A stretch of 64,000 nt of DNA from Alphaproteobacteria bacterium (GCA_020632925.1 JACKER010000007.1:116910-180909), one strand, 5' to 3'. Positions 3,351 to 39,181 are shown, counted from the stretch's first letter. Numbers and translations: made by a program. Notes: a model not told the origin generated them from the sequence alone.

Positions 3351-3417
3351 GGGGCTCCTTTTGCCGTGCCACTCCGATGGTGGCGCGACATGCCCGGGTG
3401 TCAACATCCACCCATCG

Positions 3418-5022: not shown

Positions 5023-5125
5023 GGATCACCTCGGAGGAGTCGAGGATCTCCAGTGTCCTCTCGCCGTCCGCAGAATGCAACGCGTCGCGACCCGTTCGCG
5101 GAGCGACACGTCATGACCGAGGTCG

Positions 5126-6726: not shown

Positions 6727-6733
6727 CGGCTCA

Positions 6734-10525: not shown

Positions 10526-10598
10526 CGGTTCGTACGGGATTCGAACCCGTGATCTCCCACGTGACAGGCGGGCGTCCGTACCACTGGACCAACGAACC
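10526..10598 (-). tRNA. tRNA-Asp (anticodon GTC)
   Basis: The reverse complement is GGTTCGTTGGTCCAGTGGTAGGACGCCCGCCTGTCACGTGGGAGATCACGGGTTCGAATCCCGTACGAACCG. It shows a 7-bp acceptor stem, D and T arms, the GGTTCGAATCC T-loop, and the anticodon loop CTGTCAC. CCA is not encoded. Confidence 0.85.
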
Positions 10599-11169
10599 AG
10601 AAGCAATCACGAAGCAAACGATGCAGACGGGTGCGCCCACCGCCATCCGTGATGGATGACGTCGAAACACGGGCCCGGAAACGAAAAACCCCCGGGTCCA
10701 TCGTCGGAGCCGGGGGCTTCTGCGCGATCGGAGGCCGATCGTCGCGTCACGCACCCGAGTCCGGGACGGACCCGCTGGTATCTCGGTCCGCCGCGGGGAA
10801 GCGGAGGCCGGGCTGCGGCACGAGGTGGTAGGCGTTCGTCATGGTTGGAGGGGTAAGCCGATGGGGATCGCCTGTCCAGGAGATCGTGTAGATTTCTCGT
10901 GAGTTGGCCTCACACGGTCTTTTGTAGGAATGTGCTTGCCGGATCCGAGTCGAACGGGCTAGCTCCAGACCATGCTGGTGATCCCCGCCATCGCTCCGTC
11001 GACGCTCGCGTGCACCTCCTCGTGCTCGTGGGATTCGACCGTGGTGTCGGGGGGCTGACCAGCATGCTGCGCCCCCGGCACGGACGCCGGGGTGCCACCG
11101 CCTCCTGGTCTCCGTGTCGGTGGTGCGGATCCACCACCAACCACCCTCTCAGGAGGACGGAGGCCCGTG

Positions 11170-12345
<1,176 letters not shown>

Positions 12346-12381
12346 AGCACAGGGGCTCGGGGGCTTCGCGCTCCCGAGCTC

Positions 12382-13686: not shown

Positions 13687-13693
13687 GGAAGCA

Positions 13694-15031: not shown

Positions 15032-15146
15032 GGGGTGACCTCCGCTGAGGTCCGATGCAGGCTCCGTGCCTGCCGACCCACCATCCATCGTCGCCGATCG
15101 ACGACGATCCGGGGCAGGGCTGTCCCCGATGGGTGACGACGGGCGA

Positions 15147-25134: not shown

Positions 25135-26844
25135 TCAGTGCCGGTCGTACCCGCTGGCCCAGAAGGCGACGTTGTACGAGGTCCGCACGGAGTTCCCGTT
25201 GGGCGGGCTGTAGTCCAGCATCGAGCTCACGAGCACGCCGCGGTAGCTGCCGCTGTCGTACCCGACCAGGACGTTGAGCCCGTCCGTCGATTGCATCACG
25301 ATCTCGGCGCCGGGCAGCAGCGCTCCGCTCCAAACGCCGTTCACCCGCTGCGCGTAGGGGTGGCTGTCGAGCTGGTACGACGCGGGCAGGCCGAACGCGA
25401 CGGGGTGGTCGGGCTCGAGCACGTTCACGGTGGTCTGGCAGGAGATGTAGTTCGGGTTGAGGGCGGTGCGGTCCACGCCCATGAGGTCGGCGACGGCGCT
25501 GTTGTCGGTGGCCGAGTAGTCGATGAGGTAGGTCATCACCAGGCCGCCGTGCCCACCCTCCACGAACGCGCGGATCGCGTCGGTCTGGGCCGCGGAGTAC
25601 CGCACGCCGGGGCCGGCGGGGTTCGGCGACCAGAGCACGGTCGCGCCGCTGTTGATCATGGTGGGCAGATCGATCGTCCGGATGTCGACCGCGCGCGCCG
25701 GGCAGTCGCCGTACAGCGCCCAGTCGCGCTGCAGCTCGTCCCACACACCGGAGACGCTGGTGGCGGCGTTGTTCCCGGGCAGGACCCCGATGATCACCTC
25801 GACGCAGGGGTTGCAGTCCTCCCCGTCGCAGTCGGAGTCGATCAGGTCGTCGCACTCGTCGGGTGCCGTGGGGTGGATGGTGATGTCGGCGTCGTCGCAG
25901 TCCCGCTCGACCTCTGCGACATAGCTCGCGTCGGGCGGGTGGCAGCTCGGGCCCGAGATGGGCGCGCTCCCCCAGCCGTCCCCGTCGTGATCCTGGCGCC
26001 AGATCACGTCCTCGAACACGCTGGGGTCGCGGTCGTCGCAGTCGTCGCCGGTCGCGACGTACCGCTGCGGGCGCACGCAGGCGAGCTCCGTGGTGTCGGC
26101 GTCGCCGTGCCCGTCGCGATCGAGGTCGCGGTACCAGGTGGTCGCGGTCAGCAGGTCGAGCGAGTCGTCGTCGTCGTCCGCCAGGTCGTCGCAGTCGTCG
26201 TCCTGCCCGCCGTTGCAGACCTCCTCGGCGCCCGGCCGCACCTCGGGATCGGCGTCGTCGCAGTCGCTGCCGTCGAGCACGTACCCACGGGGCAGGCGGC
26301 AGCGGCGCACGAACGTGTCGCGGTCGCCGAAGCCGTCGAGATCGTCGTCCACGAAGTAGCTGGTGAGGCTCTCGGGATCGAGATCGTCGTCATCCTCGTC
26401 GTAGAACCCGTCACAGTCCTCGTCGGCACCACCGCAGACCTCGCTCGCCTCCGGGTTCGTCGCCGGGTCGTCGTCATCGCAGTCGGTGGCGTCCTGCACC
26501 CAGTCGGGGCCGGGCTTCTTGCAGGCGAGCTCGCTCGGGAAGGGGAAGCCGAAGCCGTCGCCGTCGCGGTCCTGATACCACTGGCGGACGGGCTGGTCCT
26601 CGTCGATCACCCCGTCGCAGTCGTCGTCCACGCCGTTGCAGAGCTCCTTGCTGTCCGGGTTGAGCTCGGGATCGGCGTCGTCGCAGTCGAGCGGGTTGGT
26701 GACCTGGCCCGCCTCGAGCGCGCAGACCATGCCGGCGTCGGCGGAGCCGTATCCGTCGCCGTCCTCGTCGAGCCAGGCGTGCACGTCGGCGTGGCAGGGC
26801 GGGGAAGGACGCTCGCACGAGAACAGGAGGAAGACCGGGATCAT
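25135..26844 (-). CDS. lipoprotein with MopE-like putative metal-binding repeats and a C-terminal globular domain
   Basis: Lipobox LLFSC. At least 6 DxDGDG...CDDxDP...CNGxDDDCDG modules. C-terminal region of about 230 aa (GGHGGLVMTYLIDY...). Confidence 0.65.
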   Translation of the reverse strand: MIPVFLLFSCERPSPPCHADVHAWLDEDGDGYGSADAGMVCALEAGQVTNPLDCDDADPELNPDSKELCNGVDDDCDGVIDEDQPVRQWYQDRDGDGFGFPFPSELACKKPGPDWVQDATDCDDDDPATNPEASEVCGGADEDCDGFYDEDDDDLDPESLTSYFVDDDLDGFGDRDTFVRRCRLPRGYVLDGSDCDDADPEVRPGAEEVCNGGQDDDCDDLADDDDDSLDLLTATTWYRDLDRDGHGDADTTELACVRPQRYVATGDDCDDRDPSVFEDVIWRQDHDGDGWGSAPISGPSCHPPDASYVAEVERDCDDADITIHPTAPDECDDLIDSDCDGEDCNPCVEVIIGVLPGNNAATSVSGVWDELQRDWALYGDCPARAVDIRTIDLPTMINSGATVLWSPNPAGPGVRYSAAQTDAIRAFVEGGHGGLVMTYLIDYSATDNSAVADLMGVDRTALNPNYISCQTTVNVLEPDHPVAFGLPASYQLDSHPYAQRVNGVWSGALLPGAEIVMQSTDGLNVLVGYDSGSYRGVLVSSMLDYSPPNGNSVRTSYNVAFWASGYDRH

Positions 26845-26870: not shown

Positions 26871-27383
26871 CTACTTGGGAGGGGGTAGTTTCTGGAGCTT
26901 GCGCTGGAGCGTGCGACGGTGCAGTCCGAGGCGGCGAGCGGCTTCGGAGATGTTGCCACCACAGGCCTGCAGCACCCCGAGGATGTGGTCGCGCTCCACC
27001 TGGTCGAGGTTCTCCGAGGGGAGCGGGAGCAGCGCGTCGCGCAGGGCCTCCACGATCTGCCGTCCGGACAGGGGCTTGGTCCGGAAGTCGACGGCGCCGG
27101 CGCGCATGGCCTCCACCGCCGTCGGGATCGTGCCGTGGCCGGAGAGCATCACGCAGCGGCAGGCAGGTGCCCGCTCGGCGAGGAGGCGGACCACGTCGAG
27201 CCCGTCACCGTCCTGCAGCTTCAGGTCCACGAGGGCGAGATCGGGGAGCTGGGCCGCGAGAGCCCCCGTCGCCTCTGCGAGTCCGGAGACGAGCACGGGC
27301 TTGAAGCCGGAGCGCCGCAAGGTGTTCCCGAGCGCGCTGCGGAAGTCCGCGTCGTCCTCGACGACCAGCACCGTGTGGCTCAC
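26871..27383 (-). CDS. response regulator, RegA/ActR/PrrA-like (REC + Fis-type HTH)
   Basis: GTG start overlapping the TGA of the kinase gene (GTGA). REC motifs (VLVVEDD, DLALVDLKLQDGDG). C-terminal HTH ISEAARRLGLHRRTLQRKLQK. Confidence 0.8.
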   Translation of the reverse strand: MSHTVLVVEDDADFRSALGNTLRRSGFKPVLVSGLAEATGALAAQLPDLALVDLKLQDGDGLDVVRLLAERAPACRCVMLSGHGTIPTAVEAMRAGAVDFRTKPLSGRQIVEALRDALLPLPSENLDQVERDHILGVLQACGGNISEAARRLGLHRRTLQRKLQKLPPPK

Positions 27384-28549
27384 GCGACCCTCCTCATGCG
27401 GAGGATGGCCGTAGCGCCCCTGGGCTCGGACGGCACGAGCTGCACGCTGCCACCGACGGACTCCGCGAAGCCCCGCGCGACGAAGAGACCCAACCCGGTG
27501 CTTCCCCAACCGCTGCGGAACGGCTCGCCCGCGCGCTCCGGTGGCTCGTCCCCGAGTCCGTGCCCGTCGTCCTGGATCCGCACCTCGAGCTCGTCGTCGC
27601 CCGCGGCGCCGGCGGTGACCCGGACGTGGGTGGCACCAGCGCGCCGGGCGTTGTCGAGCGTGACCCACAGGGCGCCGCGCCAGCCGTCCTCGCCGCCGCG
27701 GACCTCCATGCCGGGGCAGGCCTCCACGTCGACGGCCACCTCGGGGGCCGAGCGCCGCCACTCCTCCACCCAACCCACCAGGTCGACCGCGCAGTGCTCA
27801 CCGGTGCCGCCACGGCCCCGCAGGCGGTCGAGCAGCGCGCCACACCGCTCCACCTGGCGCAACATCGCGGCGGTCTCGGGCTCGTCCGCGCGCTCCTCGA
27901 GCAGCAGCTGCAGCGTGCCGAGCGGGGTGCCGAGCTCGTGCGCCACGCCGGCGGCCAGGGTGCCCAGGGCCGCCAGCCGCTCGGTGGTCGCGCGCTGGCG
28001 CTCTTCCACGGCCTCCTGCTCCCGTCGCTCGCGCAGCTCGGTCGACAGGCGGGTGACGACCCAGGTGATGGCGACGGCGGCGAGGACGAAGGTCGCGAGG
28101 TGCCCGAGGAGATGTGCGCCCGACAGCGGCTCGAGCCCACTGTCCGGCGCGAACACGACGACCGCCTGCAGCGCGACGGCTCCCGCGGTCGCCACCCACG
28201 CGCGTCGAGCGGGGAGCGCCACCGCCAGCAGCGCCACGTAGATGAGCCCGGTCGCCGCCAGCGGGTTGTGGGCGCCCCCGGACAGCAGGAGGACCACGGT
28301 GAGCGCGACCAGATCGACCACCGAGTGCCGCACCACGGCCGCCTCGCCCACCTCGCGCGCGCGCGTCCACAGCGTCTCGCCCACGTCGAGGACGACCAGG
28401 GCCGCCAGGAAGGCCACGAGCGCGGGCGGATGGAGGTGCAGCCCGGTCCCTGCCTCCGCGAGCAGCAACAGGACCACCTGGATCGCGATCCAGCTCCGAC
28501 GGGTGCGCACGAGCCACCGGAGCGCCAGGTCGTGGTTGGAGCCCGTCAT
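27380..28549 (-). CDS. sensor histidine kinase, RegB/PrrB-like (polytopic membrane + HisKA + HATPase)
   Basis: Start MTGSNHDLALRW. Its ATG overlaps the upstream TGA (ATGA). About 6 TM helices. H-box AAGVAHELGTPLGTL. N/G boxes (DDGHGLGDE, GLGLFVARG). Confidence 0.75.
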   Translation of the reverse strand: MTGSNHDLALRWLVRTRRSWIAIQVVLLLLAEAGTGLHLHPPALVAFLAALVVLDVGETLWTRAREVGEAAVVRHSVVDLVALTVVLLLSGGAHNPLAATGLIYVALLAVALPARRAWVATAGAVALQAVVVFAPDSGLEPLSGAHLLGHLATFVLAAVAITWVVTRLSTELRERREQEAVEERQRATTERLAALGTLAAGVAHELGTPLGTLQLLLEERADEPETAAMLRQVERCGALLDRLRGRGGTGEHCAVDLVGWVEEWRRSAPEVAVDVEACPGMEVRGGEDGWRGALWVTLDNARRAGATHVRVTAGAAGDDELEVRIQDDGHGLGDEPPERAGEPFRSGWGSTGLGLFVARGFAESVGGSVQLVPSEPRGATAILRMRRVA

Positions 28550-29289
28550 CCCAGGCCGAACCAGGCGCCGAGCAGCCCTCCCAGCGCGGACAGGGCCGCC
28601 ATCCCGACCCCGACGGCCACCATGCCGCCGACCAGCACGAACACGATCGTCCGTTCCCGGCGCTTCGCTGCCTCCTGCCTGGCCACGAGCTCGTCGCGCA
28701 TCGCGAACACGCCGTGCTTGAGCCGTCGGCGGGCCACGGCACCGGCCTCGACGTGGTCCGACAGGCGCACGGTGGCACCGCAGTGCGTGCAGGTCAGCTG
28801 GACGCGGTGGTCGTCGGGGACGTCGTTGTGCGCGCCGCAGCTCGGGCAGTCCAGCCCCTCGGCGACCAACCGCTTCAGTGCCTCGTTCTCCGCCACCTGC
28901 CGCGCCATGTCGAGCTGGAGCCGCTCGGCGTCGTCGATGTAGGCCGACACGGGCCAGGTCCGGTCGCAGGCCTCGCACCGCACCTGCTTCGCCGTGAGGT
29001 CCAGCGGGACGTCGACCGTCTGGCCGCACTTCAGACAGGGCATGGGGCGGACGGCGGTGCTCTCGTCCTCGAGCTTGGGCGCGGTGGCGATGCTGGCCGG
29101 GTCGAAGGGCTGTTGCACCGCCTCGTTCATCCAACCCACCAGCGCGTCGACCGAGCGGGAGGCCCCGTCGGCGAGCTCGGCCGTCCGCAGCTCCTGGTGG
29201 CAGGACACGCACGTGAAGGTCCCCGTGCGGAGATCTTCGGGCAACGGGTTGCTGGTGCCGCAGGAGGGGCAGGCGAGGGTCTGGCTCAT
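28546..29289 (-). CDS. zinc-ribbon protein with C-terminal membrane anchor (4 x CxxC pairs)
   Basis: MSQTLACPSCG...CVSCH, CLKCG...CEAC, CPSCG...CTHCG; C-terminal TM IVFVLVGGMVAVGVGMAALSALGGLLGAWF. ATGA overlap with the upstream regulator gene. Confidence 0.6.
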   Translation of the reverse strand: MSQTLACPSCGTSNPLPEDLRTGTFTCVSCHQELRTAELADGASRSVDALVGWMNEAVQQPFDPASIATAPKLEDESTAVRPMPCLKCGQTVDVPLDLTAKQVRCEACDRTWPVSAYIDDAERLQLDMARQVAENEALKRLVAEGLDCPSCGAHNDVPDDHRVQLTCTHCGATVRLSDHVEAGAVARRRLKHGVFAMRDELVARQEAAKRRERTIVFVLVGGMVAVGVGMAALSALGGLLGAWFGLG

Positions 29290-30752
29290 GGGGGGCTCCG
29301 GCGCAGCCCGAGGGAGGCGAGCTTGCGCTTCACGGTGTTCCGGTCGACCTCGAGCGCCCGCGCGGTGGCGCTGATGTTGCCGCCGGTCGCCGCCCACGCG
29401 TTCCGCACCGCCTGCTGCTCGGCGTCCGCCAGCACGTCGGCCAACGGGCGCACGCCATCGGCGGTCGGCGTCGACGCGGGACGTATCCCGCGGAGCTCGG
29501 GCGACAGGTCCTCGAGCGTGACCCGGCCCTCGGCGAACACGCACCAGCGCACGACCTCGGCCCGCAGCTCGCGTACGTTCCCGGGCCAGCGCCAGGCGGC
29601 GAGACGCGCCCAGGCGTCGGCGGCGACGGGCAGCTCGGGGCGGCCCTGCTCCTCGAGGAAGCGCGCGACGAGCGCGGGCAGGTCGTCGACGCGCTCGCGA
29701 AGCGGCGGCACCTGCAGCACCACGCCCGACAGGCGGTACCAGAGGTCCTCGCGGAAGCGCCCGCGGTCCACCTCCGCCTTCAGGTCCCGATGCGTCGCGC
29801 ACACGAGGCGCACGTCGACCTTCACGTCCTGTTCGCCGCCGAGGCGCCGCAGCTCGCCCTCCTGGAGCACGCGGAGGAGGCCGACCTGCACCCGCGCGGA
29901 GAGCTCGCCGACCTCGTCGAGGAAGAGCGTGCCCTTGTGCGCGAGCTCGAACAGGCCCCGTCGGCGGGCGCTGGCGCCGGTGAACGCCCCGGCCTCGTGG
30001 CCGAAGAGCTCACTCGCGAGCAGCCCGTCGTCGAAGGCGCCGCCGTTGCAGGCCACGAACGGCCCCTTCGCGCGGGGGCTCGCCTCGTGGATCGCGCGTG
30101 CGACGAGCTCCTTGCCGGTCCCGGTCTCGCCGTGCACCAGCACCGGCACGTCGGTCGGCGCCACCCGGAGCATCCGCGAGCGCAGCGTGCGCATCGCCGC
30201 CGACTCGCCGACCATCCCGTGGCGCACGACCCCGTCCGCCCGCAGGCGCACGACCTCCTCGCGCAGCGCGCGGATCTCCGGGAAGCCCTCGACCGGCATG
30301 CGCACGACGCGCACGGGGTGCGGGTGGGGCACGGGCACGAAGCGCGCGGGCACGACCTGCAGCATGCGCGCGGGCAACAAGCCGCTCTCGACCAGGATCA
30401 CCCACAGGGTCTGCGCCTGCGGCGTACCGGCGGAGAGCAGCACGTCGAGCCCCTCGGCGCCGCGCAGCTCCTCGACCAGCGGCCGCACCGCGGCGAAGAG
30501 CTGCTCGTGGTCCGACGGGTCGGTCAGCGGCACCGCGCGCAGCTCGACGGTGCAGCCGAGCGCCTCGGCCTCGCGCTTCAGCTCCCGACCGCCGCGGAGG
30601 CCCGCCTCGGGGACCAGCACCAGGACGCGATAGTAGCGCTCGTGGTCCAGCAGGCGCAGCACCGGGCCGCGGTCCTGCTCGGGGCGAGGGCCGTGGTGGG
30701 CGGGCGGCGGGCCCGCGCCGCGATCGGTCCAGGTGAGGAGCGTGCGGCTCAC
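29286..30752 (-). CDS. rtcR: RtcR-like sigma54-dependent regulator (N-terminal CARF-like domain + AAA+ + HTH)
   Basis: GTG start overlapping the TGA of the MVP gene (GTGA). The N-terminal 170 aa align with the E. coli RtcR CARF domain: DHEQLFAAVRPLVEELRG and LDVLLSAGTPQAQTLWVILVESGLLPARMLQV, compare DYLIHITTGTHVAQICWFLLAEARYLPARLIQ. This is followed by GETGTGKE, GAFTGA, and a C-terminal HTH. The upstream part of the 1265-aa ORF is junk. Confidence 0.75.
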   Translation of the reverse strand: MSRTLLTWTDRGAGPPPAHHGPRPEQDRGPVLRLLDHERYYRVLVLVPEAGLRGGRELKREAEALGCTVELRAVPLTDPSDHEQLFAAVRPLVEELRGAEGLDVLLSAGTPQAQTLWVILVESGLLPARMLQVVPARFVPVPHPHPVRVVRMPVEGFPEIRALREEVVRLRADGVVRHGMVGESAAMRTLRSRMLRVAPTDVPVLVHGETGTGKELVARAIHEASPRAKGPFVACNGGAFDDGLLASELFGHEAGAFTGASARRRGLFELAHKGTLFLDEVGELSARVQVGLLRVLQEGELRRLGGEQDVKVDVRLVCATHRDLKAEVDRGRFREDLWYRLSGVVLQVPPLRERVDDLPALVARFLEEQGRPELPVAADAWARLAAWRWPGNVRELRAEVVRWCVFAEGRVTLEDLSPELRGIRPASTPTADGVRPLADVLADAEQQAVRNAWAATGGNISATARALEVDRNTVKRKLASLGLRRSPP

Positions 30753-33253
30753 GCCTCGTCGTTGCCCTTGATGCGCTCGAGGACGCCGGCCAGCGGGGTG
30801 CCCGCGAACATCTTGTCCACGACCTCCACGAAGTTCCGGCCGCCGACGATCTGCTGCACGCTGAGCGCCTCGGCGACCTTCACCAGGGTCTCCTCGTGCG
30901 ACAGGGCGAGCAGCGCCTCGGAGAACCCGCCCTGGGCGGCCTCGAAGCGCGCGACCACCGCGTCCACCTCGGCCTTGAGCGCGGCCAGCTTCAGCTCCTG
31001 GTCCACGCGGGAGAGCGCCTGACGCTGCTCGTGGGTCGCCTTCTCGCGGACGAGCTGCCCCTCGTGCTCGACGGCGATCGCGGCCACCTTCGCGGTGTTG
31101 GCCTCCTGCCGCCGCTGGTGCTGCTGGACCTCGCCCGCGAGCGCCGCCAGCGCGACCGAGAGCTTGGCCTTCGCCTGCTCGATCTCGAGCTCTGCCAGGC
31201 GGGTCTGCGTCGCCGTACGGGCCTCGGCCATGGAACGCGCGATGCCCTCCTGCTGCTGCGTGACCTCGAGGCTGCGCTCGGCGCGGAGCAGCGTGATCGA
31301 GGACTCGACCGCCTCGTGCTGGGCCTGGGCGAGGAGCGTCGCGATGCGGTCGTCGTCGATGCCGACCTCCAGCACCTCCACGTCCGTCACCACCATCCCG
31401 TTCTCCGCGAAGCGCATGCCGGGGCGCGGCGAGCCCTCGGACGCCTTGCCGAGGATGCCGTCCCGCACGATGTCGACGGCCTGCTTGTAGAACTGCTCGA
31501 CCGGCAGCTTTTTGATCTGGCCCTTGAGCACGCTGCGGACGTGGTCGCAGAGCAGCTTCACGTAGTTCTCGACCTCGAACCACTTCTCGGACTCGCCCGT
31601 GAAGTTCACGCGGAGGCTGTACTCGAGCGTGATGCGCACGTGGTCGGCGGTCTCGACCTCGCAGGTGTCGCCGACGCGGTTGTTGAGCACCCGCAGGAAG
31701 GACGTGCGCAGCAGCCGGTCGGTGGACTTGGGGCGGCCGGTCGACAGCTCGAGGATCTCGAGCGTCTCGTCGTACTCGAGCAACAGGTTGCGCGGGCCGA
31801 CCTCGACGCGGCGGTTGCCGCTCTTGTCGACGACCATCACCGCGTACCCCACCCAGACGTTGACGTTGGGCACGCCCTCGAACTTGGTGTTGAACACGAT
31901 GGTGCGGGGCTGGGTGTACGAGCTGCCGCGCTCGACCACGTCGCCGACCATCGCGGGCACGTCGCGGCTCACGGCGGAGGCGTCCATGGCGACCGACTGC
32001 GACGCGGGCAGCGGCGCCTTGCCCCCGCGCTGCTGCTGCTGGACGCGGTTCGCGCGCTGGTAGTCGCCCTCGCTGACCACCCCGGCGCGCGTGGTGGGCG
32101 CGGCGTCCGCGAGGCGGCGGAGCTGGCGGTTGTACGTCAGCGCCTCGTCGTTGCCCGGGTACCAGGTCTCGCACTCGCGGTCGGACAGGATGCGGCGGAC
32201 GATGACCTCGTCGACGGGGTTGGGCAGCAGCATGAGCGGCCCGCGCGCCATGTGGATGGCGCCCGTCTTGCGGTTCATCACGTAGCGGGCCTCGCCGGCG
32301 GGCACGGCGGTCGCGAAGTGCTTGTCGCGCCCGTCGTAGCGGACCAGGCTGTGCTCCTCGCGCGGGAAGTAGATGGCGGCGTCCTTGCCCGTCAGGAAGA
32401 TCTCGTCGCCTTCCTTGTACGCCTTCCCACCGTCCTCGTAGGGCGCGATGATCTTGATGTGGAGCCCCTGGATCTCGTTGAGCTCCACGGCGCGGAACTT
32501 CCGGTGCTGGTCCTTCTGGATGAAGGTCTCGGTAGGCTCGGGGAACACGACCTGCGGGCCGCGCTCGTACCGCTTCTTGCCGTTCTGATCCACCAGGATG
32601 CAGTACTCGAGGCGCTCCAGGGTGAGGGCGTCGCGCACGTACAGCCCGTCGTCGTCGGCGACCACCCCGACACCGGTGGGCGGGATGTAGAAGCTCACGT
32701 CGGTGCCCTTGATGATGAGCAGCTTGCCGACGGTCAGGTCCTGCGGAGCCTGCGCGACGGGCGCCTCGGGAGCGCCGTCGCCGGCGGGCTTGATGACGGC
32801 CTTGCCCCAGTTCTTGCGCGCCTCGTCCTCGTTGTAGACCCGGACCAGCAGGTACTGGTTGGACCGGAGGTGGTGGCCCTGGACGAGCTTGACGATCTGC
32901 CCGGGCCACAGCGCGAAGCTGCACGGGCCGTTGATGTTGATCTTGCGACCGACCTCGAGATCGGGCGACGGGTAGACGCCGCCGAACGGCGGGTGGTCGT
33001 TCTTCGTCGAGGGGTTCTTGAGGGTGAGGTAGTAGCCCTCGGGCGCGATGGCGATCTGCTGCACGGCCTCCTCGAGCCCGCACGGCTCGAAGTGCTTGGT
33101 GCCGGCGTCGAAGCGGACGGGCCGCTCCTGGGCGGTCGGGTTGATCACCGTGGGCCCGGTGTACGTCTTGACGATGCCCTTGGTGACGTCCTGCATGTAG
33201 GCGTACTCGCTGGGCGCGAGCACGAGGTCCCGCTTCTGCGCGCGATCGTCCAT
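30749..33253 (-). CDS. major vault protein (MVP) homolog, full length (N-terminal repeats, shoulder, cap-helix coiled coil)
   Basis: 834 aa starting at MDDRAQKRDLVLAPSEYAYMQDVTKGIVKTYTGPTVINPTAQERPV, compare human MVP [39 protein letters not shown]. Shoulder region LELSTGRPKSTDRLLRTSFLRVLNNRVGDTCEVETADHVRITLEYSLRVNF, compare [50 protein letters not shown]. C-terminal Ala/Glu/Gln-rich coiled coil of about 150 aa. RBS GGGAGAACCACG. Confidence 0.8.
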   Translation of the reverse strand: MDDRAQKRDLVLAPSEYAYMQDVTKGIVKTYTGPTVINPTAQERPVRFDAGTKHFEPCGLEEAVQQIAIAPEGYYLTLKNPSTKNDHPPFGGVYPSPDLEVGRKININGPCSFALWPGQIVKLVQGHHLRSNQYLLVRVYNEDEARKNWGKAVIKPAGDGAPEAPVAQAPQDLTVGKLLIIKGTDVSFYIPPTGVGVVADDDGLYVRDALTLERLEYCILVDQNGKKRYERGPQVVFPEPTETFIQKDQHRKFRAVELNEIQGLHIKIIAPYEDGGKAYKEGDEIFLTGKDAAIYFPREEHSLVRYDGRDKHFATAVPAGEARYVMNRKTGAIHMARGPLMLLPNPVDEVIVRRILSDRECETWYPGNDEALTYNRQLRRLADAAPTTRAGVVSEGDYQRANRVQQQQRGGKAPLPASQSVAMDASAVSRDVPAMVGDVVERGSSYTQPRTIVFNTKFEGVPNVNVWVGYAVMVVDKSGNRRVEVGPRNLLLEYDETLEILELSTGRPKSTDRLLRTSFLRVLNNRVGDTCEVETADHVRITLEYSLRVNFTGESEKWFEVENYVKLLCDHVRSVLKGQIKKLPVEQFYKQAVDIVRDGILGKASEGSPRPGMRFAENGMVVTDVEVLEVGIDDDRIATLLAQAQHEAVESSITLLRAERSLEVTQQQEGIARSMAEARTATQTRLAELEIEQAKAKLSVALAALAGEVQQHQRRQEANTAKVAAIAVEHEGQLVREKATHEQRQALSRVDQELKLAALKAEVDAVVARFEAAQGGFSEALLALSHEETLVKVAEALSVQQIVGGRNFVEVVDKMFAGTPLAGVLERIKGNDEA

Positions 33254-33275
33254 CGTGGTTCTCCCGTGGTTTCGG

Positions 33276-34823
33276 CTAACGGGTGATCGCGACACCGGCG
33301 ACGAGCCCGAGGACGCCCCCCAGCGCGAGCCCGACGGAGAGGCCGACGGCGACCCAGCCCGCCGGGATGCCGCGTGGTTCCGTGGAGATCACGCCCTGCT
33401 CGCGGAGGAAGTCGCCGAGGGAGCGGGTCTCGTTGAAGGAGCGCTCGATCTTGAGCAGTCGCTCGGCGGTGCGCGGCCGCTGGCTGATCGTGAGCGCGAG
33501 CTGGGGGAGGAGCTGCGTGAAGTCCTCGCGCATCGACGGCCCGAACAGCCGGCGGCGGAGGATGGCGCCGGTGATCGTGCGGACCTCGGCGGCCCCGTCG
33601 AGGTCGGGGCAGTAGCGCAGGACGATGCCCTCGACGATGGTGAGGTTGCGCAGGACGACGAACAGGTCGGACTGGGCGCTCATGTGGTAGCTGGCGCCGA
33701 CGCGCATGCCGGCGATGAGCTGCTCGGTGATGCGGTGGTCGCCGATCCGCCCACCCTCGCCGCCGGCCGCGAGGACGGCGCGCAGATCCCGCTTGAGGGC
33801 GACCTGGTCCACCCCCGGCTCGGGGCGGAAGACCTGGACGAAGGCCTCGACGGCGTCGTCGTAGCGACGGGAGGCCTGGCAGAAGACGACCTCGAGCATC
33901 TTGTCGCGCAGCGCCCTCGGGAGCTGGGCGTGCAGGCCGAAGTCGACGAGCCCGATGCGCCCCGCGGGCTCGAGGATGAGGTTGCCGGGGTGGGTGTCGC
34001 CGTGGACGAAGCCGTGCTCGTAGCACATGGAGAGCTGAAGCCGGAGCATGGAGCGGCAGAAGGCCTCGGGGTCGTAGCCGAGGGCCTGGAGCGCCTGGGG
34101 TGTGCCGACGTCGGAGAGCTTGGTGCCCTCGAGCCAGGACATGACGAGCAGGTGCGGCGTACACAGGTGCGAGACGACGGTGGGGACGACGAACTCGGGC
34201 AGCGTGGTGAGGACCTCGTCGAACCGGTCGATGGCGCGGGCCTCGGCGAGGAAGTCGAGCTCACCACGGGCGCGGGCGGCGTACTCCTCGGCGACGCGGT
34301 GGACCATGGCGCGGTGGTAGGGCGGCACGAGGCGGTCGATGAAGCCGGAGAGCGTGAGGAGCGTGTCGAGGTCGGACAGCAGGGACTCCTCGAGCCCCGG
34401 GCGCTGGACCTTGACGGCGACCTCGAGGCCTCCGTCGCGCAGCGTGGCTCGGTAGACCTGGGCGATGGAGGCGGCGGCGACGGGGGACTCGCCGAAGGAC
34501 GCGAAGACCTCGTCGAGGGGGCGTCCGAGCTCGCGCTCGACGATCTGGCGCGCCGTGTCGGTGGGGAAGGGCTCGACGGAGGACTGGAGCTTCCCGAGCT
34601 CTTCGGTGAAGGTCTCGCCGAACAGATCGACCCGCGTGGAGAGCATCTGGCCGAACTTCACGAAGGTGGGGCCGAGGCGCTCGAGGGTCCTGCGGAGGCG
34701 GACGGCCGTGTCGGCGTCGCTGCGCGCGGGCTCGTCGGGCTTCTCGGTGGGTGACTCGGTGAGCCAGCCGAGGCCTTCCTCGAGCAGGACCTTCGTGATC
34801 GTGGCGACGCGTGCGAGCTTCAT
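33276..34823 (-). CDS. UbiB/ABC1 (ADCK) family atypical protein kinase with C-terminal TM segment
   Basis: The start MKLARVATI lies within the 1171-aa ORF; the upstream part is junk. Motifs TFVKFGQMLSTRVDLFGETF, AVKVQRPG, HGDTHPGNL, VDFG. C-terminal hydrophobic helix. It is 22 nt upstream of the MVP start. Confidence 0.75.
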   Translation of the reverse strand: MKLARVATITKVLLEEGLGWLTESPTEKPDEPARSDADTAVRLRRTLERLGPTFVKFGQMLSTRVDLFGETFTEELGKLQSSVEPFPTDTARQIVERELGRPLDEVFASFGESPVAAASIAQVYRATLRDGGLEVAVKVQRPGLEESLLSDLDTLLTLSGFIDRLVPPYHRAMVHRVAEEYAARARGELDFLAEARAIDRFDEVLTTLPEFVVPTVVSHLCTPHLLVMSWLEGTKLSDVGTPQALQALGYDPEAFCRSMLRLQLSMCYEHGFVHGDTHPGNLILEPAGRIGLVDFGLHAQLPRALRDKMLEVVFCQASRRYDDAVEAFVQVFRPEPGVDQVALKRDLRAVLAAGGEGGRIGDHRITEQLIAGMRVGASYHMSAQSDLFVVLRNLTIVEGIVLRYCPDLDGAAEVRTITGAILRRRLFGPSMREDFTQLLPQLALTISQRPRTAERLLKIERSFNETRSLGDFLREQGVISTEPRGIPAGWVAVGLSVGLALGGVLGLVAGVAITR

Positions 34824-34858: not shown

Positions 34859-35155
34859 ATGCGCCGAATGTCCACTCTCCTCCTCCTCCTGACCGCCTGC
34901 GGCGGCGAGACCACCCCGACCGAGACCATGTCGGACGCCTGCGCATGGGAGGAGGAGCGCGGGACGTGCCCGAGCTGCTCGGACGGGGAGGTGACCTGCA
35001 CGCTCGACGGGGTGGAGGTGACCTCGGGCACCTGCGGGAGCTGCCAGGTGCTGTGGAAGCTGGCGTCGGAGCTGTGCGCGGCGGGCAGCGACGTGACGAC
35101 CGAGGAGATCGAGGGCGCCGACTGCACGGACCCCACCTGGTCGACCTCCGACTGA
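34859..35155 (+). CDS. small Cys-rich lipoprotein
   Basis: MRRMSTLLLLLTACGG lipobox. 12 Cys in 98 aa. The start is only about 35 nt from the divergent UbiB-like start, so the start or the gene reality is uncertain. Confidence 0.4.
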   Translation: MRRMSTLLLLLTACGGETTPTETMSDACAWEEERGTCPSCSDGEVTCTLDGVEVTSGTCGSCQVLWKLASELCAAGSDVTTEEIEGADCTDPTWSTSD

Positions 35156-35211
35156 GGGTCGCGGTCCGGGGTTCGCCCGGCAGGATGGCACCGAGGGCGG
35201 CGTGCAGTCCC

Positions 35212-35480
35212 GGGGGGATGGCCGGGCAAGGTGGCCCCTGTGCAACACACGGCGTGCGCCGACGGGGGGATGGCCGGGCAAGGTGGCCCCTGTGCAACAC
35301 GCAGCGTGCACCGACGGGGGGATGGCCGGGCAAGGTGGCTCCTGTGCAACACACGGCGTGCAGTTCCGGGGGGATGGCCGGGCAAGGTGGCTCCTGTGCA
35401 ACACACGGCGTGCAGCCCTGGGGGGATGGCCGGGCAAGGTGGGGTGGATGCAACGCGCCGCGAGGCAAGGTGCCCCTCGT
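35212..35480. repeat. REP-like tandem array, block 1: 5 direct copies of a 52-bp unit (consensus about ATGGCCGGGCAAGGTGGCCCCTGTGCAACACACGGCGTGCACCGACGGGGGG)
   Basis: Exact 52-nt periodicity (unit A residues at 35218, 35270, 35322, 35374, 35426). 46 nt are conserved plus about 6 variable nt. The fifth copy is degenerate and carries an insertion. 52 is not a multiple of 3, so the region is non-coding. Confidence 0.8.
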
Positions 35481-35607
35481 GCAACACGCGGCGTCGGGAG
35501 CTGACGGACCAACGCCAGGTCTGGTGCGGTCTTGCTTCCCGGGTGCCTCAGATCCGGGCCTTCCGGTTGCATTGGGGTGCCCTTGCCTCCCCGACGGTTG
35601 CACCGAC

Positions 35608-35865
35608 GGGGGGATGGCCGGGCAAGGTGGCTCCTGTGCAACACGCGGCGTGCACCCCCGCGGGGATGGCCGGGCAAGGTGGCCCCAGTGCAACACACGG
35701 CGTGCACCGACGGGCGGATGGCCGGGCAAGGTGGCCCCTGTGCAACAGGCGGCGTGCACCCAGGGGGGGATGGCCGGGCAAGGTGGCCCCTGTGCAACAC
35801 ACGGCGTGCGCACGCACGGGGATGGCCGGGCATGGTGGCCCTTGTGCAACACGACATGGAGCAGG
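35608..35865. repeat. REP-like tandem array, block 2: 5 more copies of the same 52-bp unit
   Basis: Unit starts at 35614, 35666, 35718, 35770, 35822. Separated from block 1 by about 130 bp of unique sequence. Immediately upstream of the RAYT gene. Confidence 0.8.
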
Positions 35866-35999: not shown

Positions 36000-36779
36000 A
36001 TGTTCCATCTCGTCGCACGCAGCGCCGACGGGCGCTTCCTGTTCCGCACCTGGGTCGAGGGCCTCGCGCTCTGGCGGCGTGTCCTCCGTGTCGCGCCGCG
36101 CACCGTCGCGCTCGTCGTCATGCCCGACCACCTCCACCTGCTCCACGCCTCCGACAACCGGCTCGAGCTCGCGCAGGCCCTCTCCGGGTACGCGCGGTGG
36201 CGCAACCGAGCGCGAGGCGAGCGCGGGCGCGTCTTCGAGCCACTGCCGTCGGCCATTCCCATCGGTACGGGCGACAAGCGGTCGCGCGCCATCCGCTACG
36301 TCCACCTCAACCCGTGCCGCGCTCGGCTCGTGTCCGATCCGCTCGCGTGGCCGCTCTCCACCCATCGGGACGCCCTCGGCCTGGCCCTCCCCGCAGCCAT
36401 CCGCGCTCACGCCGACCCCGAGGACTTCCATCGCTACGTCTCCTCCGATCCCAGCGTGAACGTCGATGGCACCGAGCTCCCGAAGGCCGGCGAAGCACCC
36501 GATCCGGAGCGGGTGCTCCAGGCGATCTCCGCCCTCACCCGAACCCCGGTCGCCCAGCTCCGGTGCAAGGGCCCCGCGCGCAATCTCCTCGTCGGCGCCA
36601 TGCGCGAGCTCTGTCCCGAGCAGCCGGTCTCGCAGGTCCATCGCACGACCGCCTGGCGTCGTCGCTCGATCGGGGTCCCGACGGATCGTGTGGTCTCGGT
36701 CCTCGCCGATCCCCGGTTCGCTCCGCTCCAGCACGGAGATCTCCGGGCGGGGTGGCGGGAGTACCGCCAGCATCGATGA
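36000..36779 (+). CDS. REP-associated tyrosine transposase (IS200/IS605 TnpA-like HUH enzyme, RAYT)
   Basis: MFHLVARSADGRFLF...VALVVMPDHLHLLHAS (HuH motif) and RSRAIRYVHLNPCRARLV (catalytic Tyr motif). No IS ends and no tnpB. Flanked by the 52-bp repeat array. Confidence 0.7.
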   Translation: MFHLVARSADGRFLFRTWVEGLALWRRVLRVAPRTVALVVMPDHLHLLHASDNRLELAQALSGYARWRNRARGERGRVFEPLPSAIPIGTGDKRSRAIRYVHLNPCRARLVSDPLAWPLSTHRDALGLALPAAIRAHADPEDFHRYVSSDPSVNVDGTELPKAGEAPDPERVLQAISALTRTPVAQLRCKGPARNLLVGAMRELCPEQPVSQVHRTTAWRRRSIGVPTDRVVSVLADPRFAPLQHGDLRAGWREYRQHR

Positions 36780-36780
36780 T

Positions 36781-36840
36781 CGATTCATCATGATGCATCA
36801 CGCATCATCGTCGGGATGATGTCTGGTGCATCAGGCTCGG
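36781..36840. promoter_or_regulatory. cluster of overlapping CATCA/TGATG inverted repeats (candidate enhancer/operator)
   Basis: tcgattCATCATGATGCATCAcgCATCATCgtcggGATGATGtcTGGTGCATCAgg: CATCATGATG and TGATGCATCA are perfect palindromes; CATCATC...GATGATG are 7-bp arms. Located 25-85 bp upstream of the sigma54 -24 element. GC is locally lower. Confidence 0.35.
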
Positions 36841-36863
36841 CCGAAACGCCAGGTTCCCCCATG

Positions 36864-36880
36864 TTGGCACGCCCGCTGCT
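36864..36880 (+). promoter_or_regulatory. sigma54 (-24/-12) promoter upstream of rtcB
   Basis: TTGGCACGCCCGCTGCT matches TGGCACG-N4-TTGCW, with GG at 36866-7, GC at 36878-9 and correct 12-nt spacing. Confidence 0.6.
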
Positions 36881-36892
36881 GTAGTGGCTGGC

Positions 36893-38080
36893 ATGGAACA
36901 CGAGACGAACATGGTGGTGCTGGACGGGGAGGGCGTCGTCATCGAGCCCGCGGCCGTCGATCAGCTCGCGCGGGTCGCCGCGCTGCCGGGGTGCGCCCGG
37001 GCGGTGGGGCTGCCGGACCTCCACCCGGGACCCGGGCTCCCGATCGGCGCTGCGGCGGCGATCGACGAGATCCGCCCCGAGCTGGTGGGCAGCGACGCGG
37101 GCTGCGGTGTGCGGCTGCTGGTCGCCGATCGCTTCAAGGTCACCGGCGACGCCCTCGAGCGCCGGGTCCGCGAGGCGACCGACGAGCCGCCGCTCCCCGA
37201 GGTCGACGCCGAGGAGGCGCTGGCCGCCGTGTGGGCCGAGGGCCCGGCGGCGCTCGCGAACGTCGCGGGGGTGCCCGACGAGCTGGCCGCACTGGCCTCG
37301 CTCGAGCCCCTCGACCCGTACCTGCACCGCGCGCTCCCCGAGGAGATGCTCTGGTCGGCCGGCTCGCTCGGCTCCATCGGCGGCGGCAACCACTTCGGCG
37401 AGCTGTCCGAGGTCGTCTCCGTCGTCGACGCGCCGGCCGCCGCGCGGATCGGGCTTCGGCGGGGGAGCGCGGTGGTGATGGTGCACAGCGGGTCGCGCGG
37501 CCTCGGGCGGATGCTCGCGGGTCGCCACGCCCACCCCCTCACGGACCCTGCGGCCTACCTCGAGGAGCTCGAGGGCTGCGTGCGCTTCGCCCGCGCCAAC
37601 CGGCTCGTCGTCGCGTGGAGGCTCGCTCGCGCCGCAGGGGTCGCCCGCGCCAGCAAGGTCGTGGGGACGCTCGACCTCGTCCACAACACGGTCGTCCGCT
37701 CGGGCGAGCGCTGGGTCCACCGCAAGGGGGCCGCGCCCGCCGAGGCCGACCAGCTCACGGTGGTGCTCGGCAGCCGCGGGGCGCACTCCTGGCTCATGTG
37801 CGGGGCGGGCTGCGAGGACGCGCTGTGCAGCGTGGCGCACGGGGCCGGACGGCGGATCACGCGCGGTGACGCCAAGGGCCACGTCCGCAGCCGCTACCGC
37901 CGGAGCGAGCTCACCCGCACCGCCACCGGCACGCGGGTGGTCTGCGACGACACCGATCTCCTCTACGAGGAGCACCCCGACTGCTACAAGTCCATCGAGG
38001 CCGTCGTCGACGTGCTCGAGGTCCGCGGCGTCGCCCGTCGGGTCGCCGCGTTGCGGCCGCTCGTGACGGTGAAGCGGTGA
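36893..38080 (+). CDS. rtcB: RtcB-family RNA ligase (PrfH-associated RtcB2 type)
   Basis: Motifs GCGVRLL, GGGNHFGEL, VHSGSRGLG, HNTVV, HGAGR. ORF-track start is GTG 36884; I prefer the ATG at 36893 or the ATG at 36911 because the sigma54 transcription start should fall near 36890. The stop overlaps the prfH start (GTGA). Confidence 0.8.
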   Translation: MEHETNMVVLDGEGVVIEPAAVDQLARVAALPGCARAVGLPDLHPGPGLPIGAAAAIDEIRPELVGSDAGCGVRLLVADRFKVTGDALERRVREATDEPPLPEVDAEEALAAVWAEGPAALANVAGVPDELAALASLEPLDPYLHRALPEEMLWSAGSLGSIGGGNHFGELSEVVSVVDAPAAARIGLRRGSAVVMVHSGSRGLGRMLAGRHAHPLTDPAAYLEELEGCVRFARANRLVVAWRLARAAGVARASKVVGTLDLVHNTVVRSGERWVHRKGAAPAEADQLTVVLGSRGAHSWLMCGAGCEDALCSVAHGAGRRITRGDAKGHVRSRYRRSELTRTATGTRVVCDDTDLLYEEHPDCYKSIEAVVDVLEVRGVARRVAALRPLVTVKR

Positions 38081-38673
38081 GCGTCGAGCTGCTGGTCACC
38101 AGCGGCGACGGCCCCCTCGAGGTGCGGTGGTTCGTGGCCGCGCTCGTGGAGGCGCTCGCCGAGCGCTTCGCCGTGCTCGACCGGACGGTCACGGGCCCGG
38201 AGGACGCGCCGTACTCGGTGGTGCTCCAGGTGGCCGACGAGCGAGTGGGCGACTGGCTCGGCACGCACGCGCTCTACCGCCCGAGCGAGCGCCGACGGGG
38301 ACGCAGCCGCTGGTACGTCGGTGTGAGCGCGCTGCCCCCCGTACCCTCGGCACCCGAGGTCGATCCGGCCGATGTGGAGGTCCGCACGATGCGGGGCGGC
38401 GGACCGGGCGGGCAGGCCGTGAACACGACCGCGTCGGCGGTGGTCGCCGTGCACCGCCCCAGCGGCGTGTCCGTGCGCATCCAGGACGAGCGCAGCCAGC
38501 ACCAGAACCGCCGTCGCGCGCTCGAGCGGCTGGCGGTCGCGCTGGCGCGGAGGGCGGAGGCGGCGTCGGGGGTGGTGGAGCGGAGCCGCTGGCTGCGGCG
38601 GCACCAGGTGGTGCGGGGCGATCCGGTTCGCCGCTGGCGGGACGACCGCGGGCGGCTGGTGGAGGAGCGATGA
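38077..38673 (+). CDS. prfH: peptide chain release factor H (PrfH, RF2-like GGQ protein)
   Basis: MRGGGPGGQAVNTTASAVVAVHRPSGVSVRIQDERSQHQNRRRALERL carries the GGQ motif in a truncated RF2-like fold. Genetic linkage to RtcB is the known rtcB2-prfH pairing. Confidence 0.75.
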   Translation: MSVELLVTSGDGPLEVRWFVAALVEALAERFAVLDRTVTGPEDAPYSVVLQVADERVGDWLGTHALYRPSERRRGRSRWYVGVSALPPVPSAPEVDPADVEVRTMRGGGPGGQAVNTTASAVVAVHRPSGVSVRIQDERSQHQNRRRALERLAVALARRAEAASGVVERSRWLRRHQVVRGDPVRRWRDDRGRLVEER

Positions 38674-39122
38674 GGGACGACATGCGCGACGTGCTGATCA
38701 CCCGCGGACGGCGCGGCGGGGACTGGCGCAAGCCGGGGCGGAAGCGGCCGCTCGAGGATCTCCCGCTGCGCGAGCCCATGATGCGCGGTGGAACGAAGTT
38801 CTTCGACGATCACCTCGGCCCGCTCAAGCGCTTCCTGGCCTCCCGCGTGGGGCGTCCGTGGGACGAGGTGTGGAGCGAGCTCACGCAGCACCTCGACCGC
38901 CGCGGCTTGCTCCAGGAGCACGTCTTCGTCCACCTCAAGCAGATGGTCGTGACGGAGGTGGTGGTCAAGGACGGCGTGCTCGGGTGCATGGGCTATCGAG
39001 GTTGGTACCCCCTGCACTCCGGCCGATGGCGGAACAGCTACTTCGTCGACCCGGCGACCTCGCGCCTCGAGCGCGCCCCCGACCGTCGCGTCGGCCGAGT
39101 GACGACTTCGAAAGAAGGATGA
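38670..39122 (+). CDS. hypothetical protein (third gene of the rtcB-prfH operon)
   Basis: The ATG overlaps the prfH TGA (ATGA). 150 aa, basic, normal composition (MRDDMRDVLITRGRRGGDWRKPGRKRPLEDL...). No recognisable domain. Confidence 0.45.
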   Translation: MRDDMRDVLITRGRRGGDWRKPGRKRPLEDLPLREPMMRGGTKFFDDHLGPLKRFLASRVGRPWDEVWSELTQHLDRRGLLQEHVFVHLKQMVVTEVVVKDGVLGCMGYRGWYPLHSGRWRNSYFVDPATSRLERAPDRRVGRVTTSKEG

Positions 39123-39181
39123 GGCGCGCTGGGCGATCGCGTACCGCCGATGGTACACACCTCGTCTACCCGGGAGGTCTC

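Follow-up and report, generated by a model that had tools for sequence, protein, structure and literature searches.

What the vault particle does has been an open question since 1986, and it returns wherever a major vault protein (MVP) homolog turns up in a bacterial genome: what is such a protein doing there, and do the genes around it offer a clue? We addressed this for a 64,000-nucleotide stretch (hereafter, the window) of an assembly labelled Alphaproteobacteria bacterium (GCA_020632925.1, JACKER010000007.1:116910-180909), in which an MVP homolog (30749..33253) lies beside the gene for an RtcR-like regulator. The protein is almost certainly a full-length member of a bacterial branch of the MVP family. 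The link between MVP and RNA repair is real and recurrent, and it is already published; the window adds a clean example, in which MVP is translationally coupled to a regulator of the RtcR_PspF2 subfamily that is dedicated to a divergent rtcB-prfH pair.

A full-length bacterial member of the MVP family

A first-pass annotation of this DNA had called a complete MVP homolog of 834 residues and proposed a Pfam search and a structure prediction of the monomer as checks. The Pfam search bore the call out: MVP_shoulder (PF11978) matched residues 524-632 at 5.9e-26 (91.3 bits against a gathering cut-off (GA) of 25), covering positions 2-116 of the 118 in the profile, and Vault_3 exceeded its gathering cut-off at residues 476-514 (5.5e-8). 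A phmmer search of all PDB chains matched MVP alone (6e-17, residues 470-759). With a profile of 37 family sequences the match improved to 9e-23 over residues 464-794, and the HMMER profile alignment extends through rabbit MVP up to residue 828. By sequence, the N-terminal half yielded a weak stretch against rat MVP (209-371 against 285-446, E 0.47-0.8), so that significant alignment with eukaryotic MVP is confined to the C-terminal ~45%, from about residue 464 on (repeat R9, shoulder, and cap helix).

The structure prediction was equally favorable. A first AlphaFold run, made from a shallow alignment of 37 close homologs, modelled the N-terminal half poorly, with a predicted local distance difference test (pLDDT) score of 51. 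The AlphaFold (AF2) model generated from 62 diverse homologs reached a mean pLDDT of 80, and ~90 across residues 10-400. When this model was compared with the PDB using Foldseek, the top 12 matches were full-length MVP chains from human, rabbit, and rat (E 7e-34 to 5e-27), in alignments of 850-940 columns. The next matches were murine MVP R1-R7 crystal structures (E ~1e-14 (1.5e-14), TM-score 0.53-0.55), and SPFH complexes ranked after the MVP structures at E ~1e-7. The annotation had also stated that the protein aligns with eukaryotic MVP over its whole length, which holds at the level of the fold but fails by sequence outside the C-terminal part; the peptides it quoted are indeed found in the protein.

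The domain layout consists of N-terminal beta-repeat modules at ~10-355 and 463-515, a helical or disordered insert at ~358-455, an SPFH-type shoulder (524-632), a cap helix that is one single helix in the AF2 model (635-773), and a short helical region at the end. Offsets in the alignments point to roughly one repeat less than rat MVP has, along with the insert; this is an estimate and not a rigorous count of the repeats. The whole-chain domain order is shared with eukaryotic MVP (rat, human, and rabbit; PDB 4V60, 9BW5, 9R86, and 9Z4W), and both have the repeat wall, the PF11978 shoulder, and a cap helix of ~140 residues. The lengths are also similar (834 residues against 861-893), but the structure-based identity between animal MVP and the window protein is only ~17-19%. 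Judging from the model, the repeat wall, shoulder, and cap helix probably let the protein self-assemble as a cage that resembles a vault or half-vault. In line with the annotation's statement, the literature searched contained no experimental account of vault particles in bacteria.

Could the gene be a eukaryotic contaminant, or a very recent transfer from a eukaryote? Nothing beyond the homology itself speaks for this, and composition and phylogenetic neighborhood refute it, leaving the idea virtually no probability. The GC content (0.69) and GC at third codon positions (GC3, 0.97) are like those of the neighboring genes in a window of ~72% GC, which excludes contamination, as the annotation had already argued; the gene overlaps bacterial genes by 4 nt, and hundreds of bacterial relatives at 40-81% identity contrast with the low figure for animal MVP. 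The protein has no hydrophobic segments (maximum KD19 0.99), and no transmembrane (TM) or amphipathic membrane anchor was found in it. Because the composition matches that of the neighbors and hydrophobic segments are absent, we regard the protein as native and cytoplasmic, and its native origin in a high-GC Myxococcota genome is supported. PADLOC models, which cover anti-phage defence, gave zero matches to it.

In a neighbor-joining tree of 76 MVPs, class A, the clade that includes the window MVP and consists mostly of solitary genes, stood apart from two paralog clades at ~55% identity. Many metagenome-assembled genomes (MAGs) hold more than one MVP paralog, and myxobacterial MVPs split into at least three paralog clades.

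The adjacent regulator and its divergent rtcB-prfH partner

The gene that follows MVP encodes a sigma54 enhancer-binding protein (EBP). The PADLOC model PDLC01995 (RtcR_PspF2--CARF_AAA_HTH) matches it end to end at 7.1e-135. In Pfam it matches Sigma54_activat (6.3e-67) and HTH_8 (1.6e-6), and its RtcR (PF06956) score of 22.7 bits is just short of the GA of 23.1; the GETGTGK, GAFTGA, and DEVGE motifs are all present. An hhalign comparison of the N-terminal domain with the canonical RtcR CARF domain gave 85.6% probability (E 5.6e-6) and paired DPSD with NPWDF, SAGTPQAQ with TTGTHVVQ, and LLQVxP with LLQSSP. Relatives of the EBP bear precomputed PF06956 assignments, and its N-terminus aligns from "LLTW" with orthologs at L027 and L029, two class-A MVP loci. 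Against the canonical RtcR model NF038308 it scored 318 bits (cut-off 650), and it constitutes a distinct subfamily.

An RNA ligase gene and a release-factor gene, rtcB-prfH, are transcribed divergently 3.6 kb upstream of MVP and 6.1 kb from the EBP start, and so are not directly adjacent to the regulator. The ligase contains the RtcB motifs DLHPG, GGGNHF, and HSGSRG and matches PRK09588 at 4.6e-89 in NCBIfam. The pair resembles the known RtcB2-PrfH pair in being a two-gene unit with a stop/start overlap and the catalytic motifs, and it differs in that its best NCBIfam matches score just below the equivalog cut-offs (253 bits against 272 for TIGR03073 release_rtcB; 120 bits against 167 for TIGR03072 release_prfH, in a full-length match at 1e-34) and that it has a sigma54 promoter and a dedicated CARF regulator. 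PrfH and its RtcB partner reportedly rescue and repair ribosomes with cleaved 16S rRNA, a result attributed to work by Tian et al. in PNAS in 2022.

The promoter directly upstream of rtcB is one of six sites in the window that score at least 10 when both strands (128 kb) are scanned. For the window, L027, and L029, the presence of a sigma54 promoter ahead of rtcB was confirmed. The TGATGCATCA-like palindromes at 36775-36835 may be activator binding sites. In five of five other contexts examined (L027, L029, and the P0272, P0298, and P0293 contigs), a member of this EBP family is directly divergent from rtcB-RF1/prfH, and rtcB directly adjoins an EBP of this family in L027, L029, L244, L245, and the P0272 contig. 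Since this arrangement held in all contexts examined, we consider rtcB-prfH to be the conserved partner of the EBP. In the window lineage, ubiB-mvp has come to lie between the EBP gene and the region of the divergent promoter, fused to the EBP gene by a 4-nt overlap. At L027 and L029, the EBP/rtcB-prfH module lies 3-5 kb from MVP.

A mechanism for regulators of this general type has been described in Salmonella, where the CARF domain of RtcR binds 5' tRNA halves with a 2',3'-cyclic phosphate end, upon which RtcR forms oligomers and turns on sigma54-dependent transcription of the operon for repair (PMC7790460). The annotation had raised the idea of an RNA-damage link from the RtcR-like gene, and the link is stronger than it claimed, given the sigma54-driven rtcB-prfH pair upstream of MVP and the MVP genes inside rtcR-rtcB operons described below.

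MVP and RtcB recur together in other genomes

When 927 neighborhood open reading frames (ORFs) from 80 species loci were clustered without prior assumptions, the top two families other than MVP were a sigma54 EBP and a ~420-residue protein with RtcB motifs. Pfam confirmed this for clade B1, the only myxobacterial MVP paralog clade that is embedded in canonical rtcR-rtcB operons. There, the gene for a canonical RtcR (PF06956, 228 bits) diverges from that for RtcB (431 bits), which is followed by MVP on its own strand; rtcR is adjacent in 11 of the 13 genomes, and rtcB lies 4-124 nt upstream of MVP in 10. The rtcR-rtcB spacers (105-120 nt) hold GGATAA..TATC motifs and a correctly spaced GG-N10-GC promoter. 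At L051, which has no rtcB, rtcR and MVP are directly divergent and the GG-N10-GC site falls right before MVP. In four B1 loci, the spacer between rtcB and MVP holds a GC-rich hairpin with a T-run (e.g. CCCCGGT...ACCGGGGTTTTGTT), and a TGCTAWCCAYCCCCGC box is common to the spacers of L055, L058, and L069. A search for a conserved noncoding block downstream of the B1 MVPs found only a 48-nt stretch, in close relatives only.

A metagenome scan added four further B1-type loci. RtcB was also found near more distant MVPs on the lower-GC contigs L105, L108, L110, L121, and L123, which are probably non-myxobacterial, and on the viral contig L166; ~1.13 Mb of flanks contained 12 RtcB genes. Three of these loci deserve description. 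L123 (190..5638, GC 54%) presents a third RtcB-MVP architecture, in which rtcB, a 498-residue Mg-chelatase/ComM-like AAA+ gene, and MVP follow one another on one strand with gaps of 12 and 46 nt. At L108 (1954..8339, GC 52%), genes for an NMNAT-like cytidylyltransferase and NAMPT are directly upstream of MVP, and RtcB is directly downstream; the NAD-salvage neighbors are of note in view of recent work in which the shoulder of the human vault was found to bind ADP-ribose, and of the NADase activity of TEP1 (bioRxiv 10.64898/2026.05.01.722283). L121 (Ga0306866_1000041, 1..16000, GC 43%) carries RtcB at 1007-2248, a DnaJ-like gene, and MVP at 7923-10601, all embedded in an array of 36 tRNA genes (12 before MVP and 24 after it). 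The locus has the look of a kit with which a phage or mobile element would counter tRNA cleavage.

RtcB-centred RNA-repair operons with scaffold proteins are a known system, and the abstract of a 2016 study by Burroughs and Aravind is said to treat SPFH/Band-7 and Rot/TROVE scaffolds with cognate noncoding RNAs (ncRNAs). A 2026 preprint (PMC13404743) states the RtcB-MVP link and credits it to Burroughs & Aravind 2016. As in that system, RtcB genes here share neighborhoods or operons with MVP homologs under RtcR-type CARF/sigma54 control. Because the link is already in the literature, the annotation's claim that no genomic context connecting MVP to an RNA-damage regulator had been described fails. 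The window therefore adds detail to a known link and is not its discovery, and the details described here can guide the choice of organisms and promoters. In comparison with the RtcB-centred operons, the window MVP is outside the rtcB operon, in a divergent unit upstream of the regulator gene; the window ligase is PrfH-associated and not part of a canonical rtcBA pair, and no tRNA-like or other ncRNA was detected.

The Salmonella rsr-yrlBA-rtcBA operon (Hughes et al. 2020, PMC7790460) offers a second comparison. A CARF-AAA+-HTH sigma54 activator divergent from the RtcB operon is common to both systems, and a homolog of a eukaryotic ribonucleoprotein component sits within the RtcB operon in each case, Ro60 in Salmonella and MVP in clade B1. 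The loci described here differ in that no Ro60/TROVE protein or Y RNA was found in the scans made of them and in that RtcA is not next to rtcB in B1 or the window; the window regulator is RtcR_PspF2.

A proposed role for the cage

Based on the syntenic contexts (six of six, counting the window), the sigma54 promoter, and the published RtcR mechanism, we propose that the EBP would sense RNA damage via its CARF domain and switch on the divergent, sigma54-dependent rtcB-prfH repair pair. MVP would be made from the regulator's transcription unit in the window and from the rtcB operon in clade B1. The assembled cage could then scaffold or sequester damaged tRNA, ribosomal particles, or repair enzymes, concentrating the ligase with its substrates, in a role analogous to that of Ro60/Y RNA in the Salmonella operon. 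Because MVP genes recur by RtcB in independent arrangements, guilt by association makes an accessory scaffold or container of the RtcB response the most likely role for the cage. We regard this package, consisting of RNA-damage sensing by the EBP, its control of rtcB-prfH, and an accessory MVP cage, as reasonably probable.

A more far-reaching possibility, which we offer only tentatively, is that handling damaged translation RNAs was the ancestral job of bacterial and phage MVP cages. They would be induced, or deployed jointly, with RtcB-type ligases under CARF/sigma54 control; when toxins or phages attack, they would enclose or scaffold ribosomal particles or tRNAs that have been cleaved, along with RtcB or PrfH, and the window would be a variant with the cage gene fused into the regulator's unit beside rtcB-prfH. 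If this were true, a tractable bacterial system would provide a direct experimental handle on the purpose of vaults. More generally, bacterial MVP genes represent a simpler setting for asking what vaults do, and the repeated adjacency of RtcB points to RNA-damage handling.

Several observations count against the accessory-cage proposal. Among contexts found via the EBP alone (P0272, P0298, and P0293), none of the three had MVP within 10 kb. Class-A MVPs are mostly solitary with variable neighbors, and the two closest relatives of the window MVP (81% identity, on contigs of 504 kb and 79 kb) have entirely different neighbors, and the 10 kb around them hold neither Rtc genes nor a UbiB or EBP gene. 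No convincing sigma54 promoter was found upstream of ubiB-mvp, where the best site scores 9/12 (34971, minus strand) and is one of 29 such sites in the window, and the upstream regions of 154 MVP genes showed no general enrichment for sigma54 sites. In the window, MVP is thus expressed together with the regulator, but control by the regulator is not demonstrable. In clade B1, co-transcription of rtcB and MVP may be attenuated, because a hairpin with a T-run separates the two genes in 4 of 10 loci (L054, L055, L058, and L069); this element could tune the expression of MVP by acting as a terminator or attenuator. Lastly, the transposase-like ORF and the repeat array in the 2-kb spacer upstream of the window cluster fit a recent rearrangement.

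The partners of eukaryotic vaults (vault RNA, TEP1/TROVE, and PARP4) were also not found at the window locus. No TROVE, vWA, or PARP protein was among the neighboring proteins scanned, a scan of linked genes only that some neighbors fell outside. A gathering-level Rfam scan of the whole window found nothing but a tRNA-Asp 20 kb away, an E-value scan of the 33-45 kb region found no Y RNA or vault RNA, and a scan of six Rtc-linked loci found no small-RNA partner. ARAGORN detected no tRNA-like gene in 21 of 22 Rtc-linked loci, the exception being L121. The annotation had suggested a Y- or vault-like RNA at 35480..35610 or 36780..36890, which these results do not sustain; neither interval has an Rfam match, the first being the spacer of the repeat array and the second the upstream activator region and promoter of rtcB. 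Folding of 35450-35620 on both strands revealed no unusual structure (z = -1.0 and -0.4). For this locus, the TROVE/Y-RNA parallel serves as an analogy only.

One could explain much of this by a coincidental neighborhood, with MVP real but its adjacency to the RtcR-like gene a recent and meaningless rearrangement, and with class-A MVP acting as a stand-alone protein in storage, stress protection, or as a generic cage. The closest relatives and ~50 class-A loci, which lack any of the window's neighbors, agree with this account, as do the absence of MVP near the EBP in the three unbiased contexts, the repeats and transposase-like ORF in the spacer, and the missing sigma54 site before ubiB-mvp. 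It has more difficulty with the 4-nt stop/start overlap of the MVP and EBP genes, which implies a selected operon fusion; with L027 and L029, two class-A loci that independently have the EBP/rtcB-prfH module close to MVP; and with the recurrence of RtcB-MVP adjacency across several clades and GC classes. We consider coincidence doubtful as an explanation, and the accessory-cage proposal is the one that we prefer.

The MVP family is large in bacteria and on viral contigs

The annotation held that MVP homologs had been noted in only a few bacterial genomes, a picture that proved far too low: the family is large in bacteria, not rare. A word-indexed search returned 5453 clusters at 90% identity, the best 120 of which share 64-81% identity with the window MVP. 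An exhaustive search returned 1251 clusters at 50% identity, 626 of them with E<=1e-30, and its top 150 were full-length at 40-55% identity. Pattern scans confirmed 92 relatives in GTDB species genomes; on JGI metagenome contigs they numbered at least 541, and on IMG/VR viral contigs 283. The closest relatives derive from MAGs of Myxococcales, Kofleriaceae, Nannocystaceae, and Haliangiales, and many had been labelled "major vault protein" by JGI. One class-A MVP, 65% identical to that of the window, is on a contig labelled Candidatus Achromatium palustre (L023, LFCU01000241.1); the rest of the set is all Myxococcota, and this contig, attributed to a gammaproteobacterium, is probably mis-binned or a case of lateral transfer.

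Many of the 283 viral contigs are large (100-480 kb), and their full-length MVP relatives are at 39-54% identity. Among the 80 viral loci that were fetched (L164-L243), 39 have tRNA genes within 10 kb of MVP, in arrays of up to 29, and RtcB adjoins MVP only in L166.

Bacterial MVP homologs in Myxococcales, Cytophagales, and Oscillatoriales have been published before (Sokolskyi 2019, bioRxiv 10.1101/872010, citing Shaik 2013, PMC3762200), and Asgard MVPs are also in the literature. For viruses, the sole report found in our literature search is a 2023 preprint that describes two phage MVPs (bioRxiv 10.1101/2023.11.10.566534). The window protein belongs to the group described in these bacterial and phage surveys, which comprise a handful of sequences and no gene-context analysis. 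MVP homologs are thus far commoner, both among bacteria and on large contigs of viral origin, than was reported in the surveys consulted.

The surrounding gene cluster and spacer

The features of the locus are summarized in Table 1. The annotation's list of genes and junctions along the minus strand, a 22-nt gap followed by GTGA, ATGA, ATGA, and GTGA overlaps, is correct throughout. Its operon claim is right about the tight packing and the "-like" family calls (UbiB, RtcR, Zn-ribbon, and RegB/RegA), but does not extend to a conserved unit: in a tblastn search with six window neighbors against the 80 species loci, the UbiB, Zn-ribbon, histidine kinase, response regulator, and MopE genes were never beside MVP orthologs, and the two closest relatives lack the unit as well. 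The exact six-gene order (UbiB, MVP, EBP, Zn-ribbon, histidine kinase, response regulator) is a lineage-specific rearrangement and not a conserved system.

Table 1. Coordinates and main characteristics of features at the window's MVP locus
Feature	Position	Strand	Description
MopE-motif lipoprotein	25135..26844	-	Pfam Cu-binding_MopE 3.4e-27; four metal-binding motifs; 26 nt downstream of the response regulator gene
RegA/PrrA/ActR-like response regulator	26871..27383	-	Pfam Response_reg, HTH_8; receiver and Fis helix-turn-helix (HTH); GTGA overlap
RegB/PrrB/ActS-like membrane histidine kinase	27380..28549	-	Pfam HATPase_c, HisKA; H-box HELGTP; ATGA overlap
Zn-ribbon/TM protein	28546..29289	-	Weak Zn-ribbon Pfam matches; six CxxC motifs in three zinc ribbons; TM helix at the C-terminus; ATGA overlap with EBP gene
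Sigma54 EBP, RtcR_PspF2 subfamily	29286..30752	-	CARF, AAA+, and Fis-type HTH; GTG start overlaps MVP stop (GTGA)
MVP homolog	30749..33253	-	834 aa; GGGAG ribosome-binding site in the 22-nt gap after the UbiB gene
ABC1/UbiB-family atypical kinase	33276..34823	-	Pfam ABC1 2.6e-64; C-terminal TM helix; 22 nt upstream of MVP
Small predicted lipoprotein	34859..35155	+	LLTAC lipobox; divergent from ubiB, 35 nt between start codons; no family match
52-nt tandem repeats, two blocks of ~5 copies	35198..35442 and 35599..35853		TRF scores 390 and 384; blocks ~155 nt apart
Transposase-like ORF	36001..36459	+	152 aa; "MPDHLHLL" and "RYVHLNPCRA" strings recall HUH/Y1 (IS200/RAYT-like) transposases
TGATGCATCA-like palindrome cluster	36775..36835		Inverted repeat I3; candidate upstream activator sequence for the EBP
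Sigma54 (-24/-12) promoter TGGCACGCCCGCTGCT	36865..36880	+	Directly upstream of rtcB; TGGCACG-N4-CTGCT; 11/12, GG-N10-GC spacing right
RtcB-family RNA ligase, PrfH-associated type	36884..38080	+	Pfam RtcB (PF01139) 1.3e-67; start possibly ATG 36893 or 36911
PrfH-like release-factor homolog	38077..38673	+	Pfam RF-1 2.5e-23; GGQ at residue 111; GTGA overlap with rtcB

The kinase upstream of MVP scored 302 bits against TIGR01982 UbiB (cut-off 487), so we call it an ABC1-family member and not a UbiB equivalog; PADLOC gave weak generic kinase matches to it only. Likewise, NF033792 and NF033791 are the best matches, both full-length, of the histidine kinase (6.5e-35, 121 bits, cut-off 350) and the response regulator (2.3e-42, 145 bits, cut-off 250), and because both scores are under the cut-offs, the pair is only RegB/RegA-like. 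The Zn-ribbon protein has six CxxC motifs by our count, where the annotation had given four; its call of a MopE-like lipoprotein was confirmed by Pfam.

The histidine kinase has a GGAHNPL motif within a region predicted to be TM, and its gene shares the gene string with that of the UbiB-family kinase. The motif resembles what we take to be the quinone-site motif of RegB, GGxxNPF, and a quinone/redox theme may run through the gene string. In another account, MVP, with its SPFH/Band-7 shoulder, would belong to a membrane or redox-stress module with the UbiB-family kinase, the RegB/RegA-like pair, the Zn-ribbon protein, and the MopE lipoprotein, which would mount a stress response of the envelope or respiratory chain in the manner of HflK/C, prohibitin, or flotillin. 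The 4-nt overlaps of genes on the MVP strand, the rank of SPFH complexes as the next-best structural matches after MVP, and the quinone-site likeness are in keeping with it, as is the presence of ABC1/UbiB-like kinases ~3-5 kb upstream of MVP, beyond rtcR and rtcB, at L055, L058, and L069. Yet MVP has no TM or amphipathic anchor, none of these genes is kept beside MVP elsewhere, the UbiB-like proteins near B1 MVPs are only 27-32% identical to that of the window, and the L069 copy is on the opposite strand, convergent with rtcR. A redox module is therefore unlikely, and we retain the RNA-repair reading of the locus. The three B1 kinases are 81% identical to one another and represent a second, independent case of proximity between the UbiB family and MVP.

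The tandem repeats lie in the spacer that separates rtcB from the ubiB-MVP cluster. Their 20-nt core, GGATGGCCGGGCAAGGTGGC, has 10 copies there and occurs nowhere else in the window; it has no Rfam match. The ORF at 36001..36459, which had no match in Pfam, NCBIfam, or PADLOC, may show where a rearrangement took place between the rtcB and EBP genes. An account of the 52-nt repeats as a REP/RAYT system was considered, given the HxH and Y-motif-like strings of this adjacent ORF, and was set aside because the ORF lacks a Pfam or NCBIfam match and the repeat is not dispersed.

Beyond prfH, a 544-residue protein with weak MIDAS-adhesin/CglD similarity is encoded at 38858..40492 (plus strand). It lies between prfH and the gene for a second sigma54 EBP of 631 residues (40553..42448, minus strand), ~2 kb downstream of prfH, whose N-terminal region is unrelated to that of the first.

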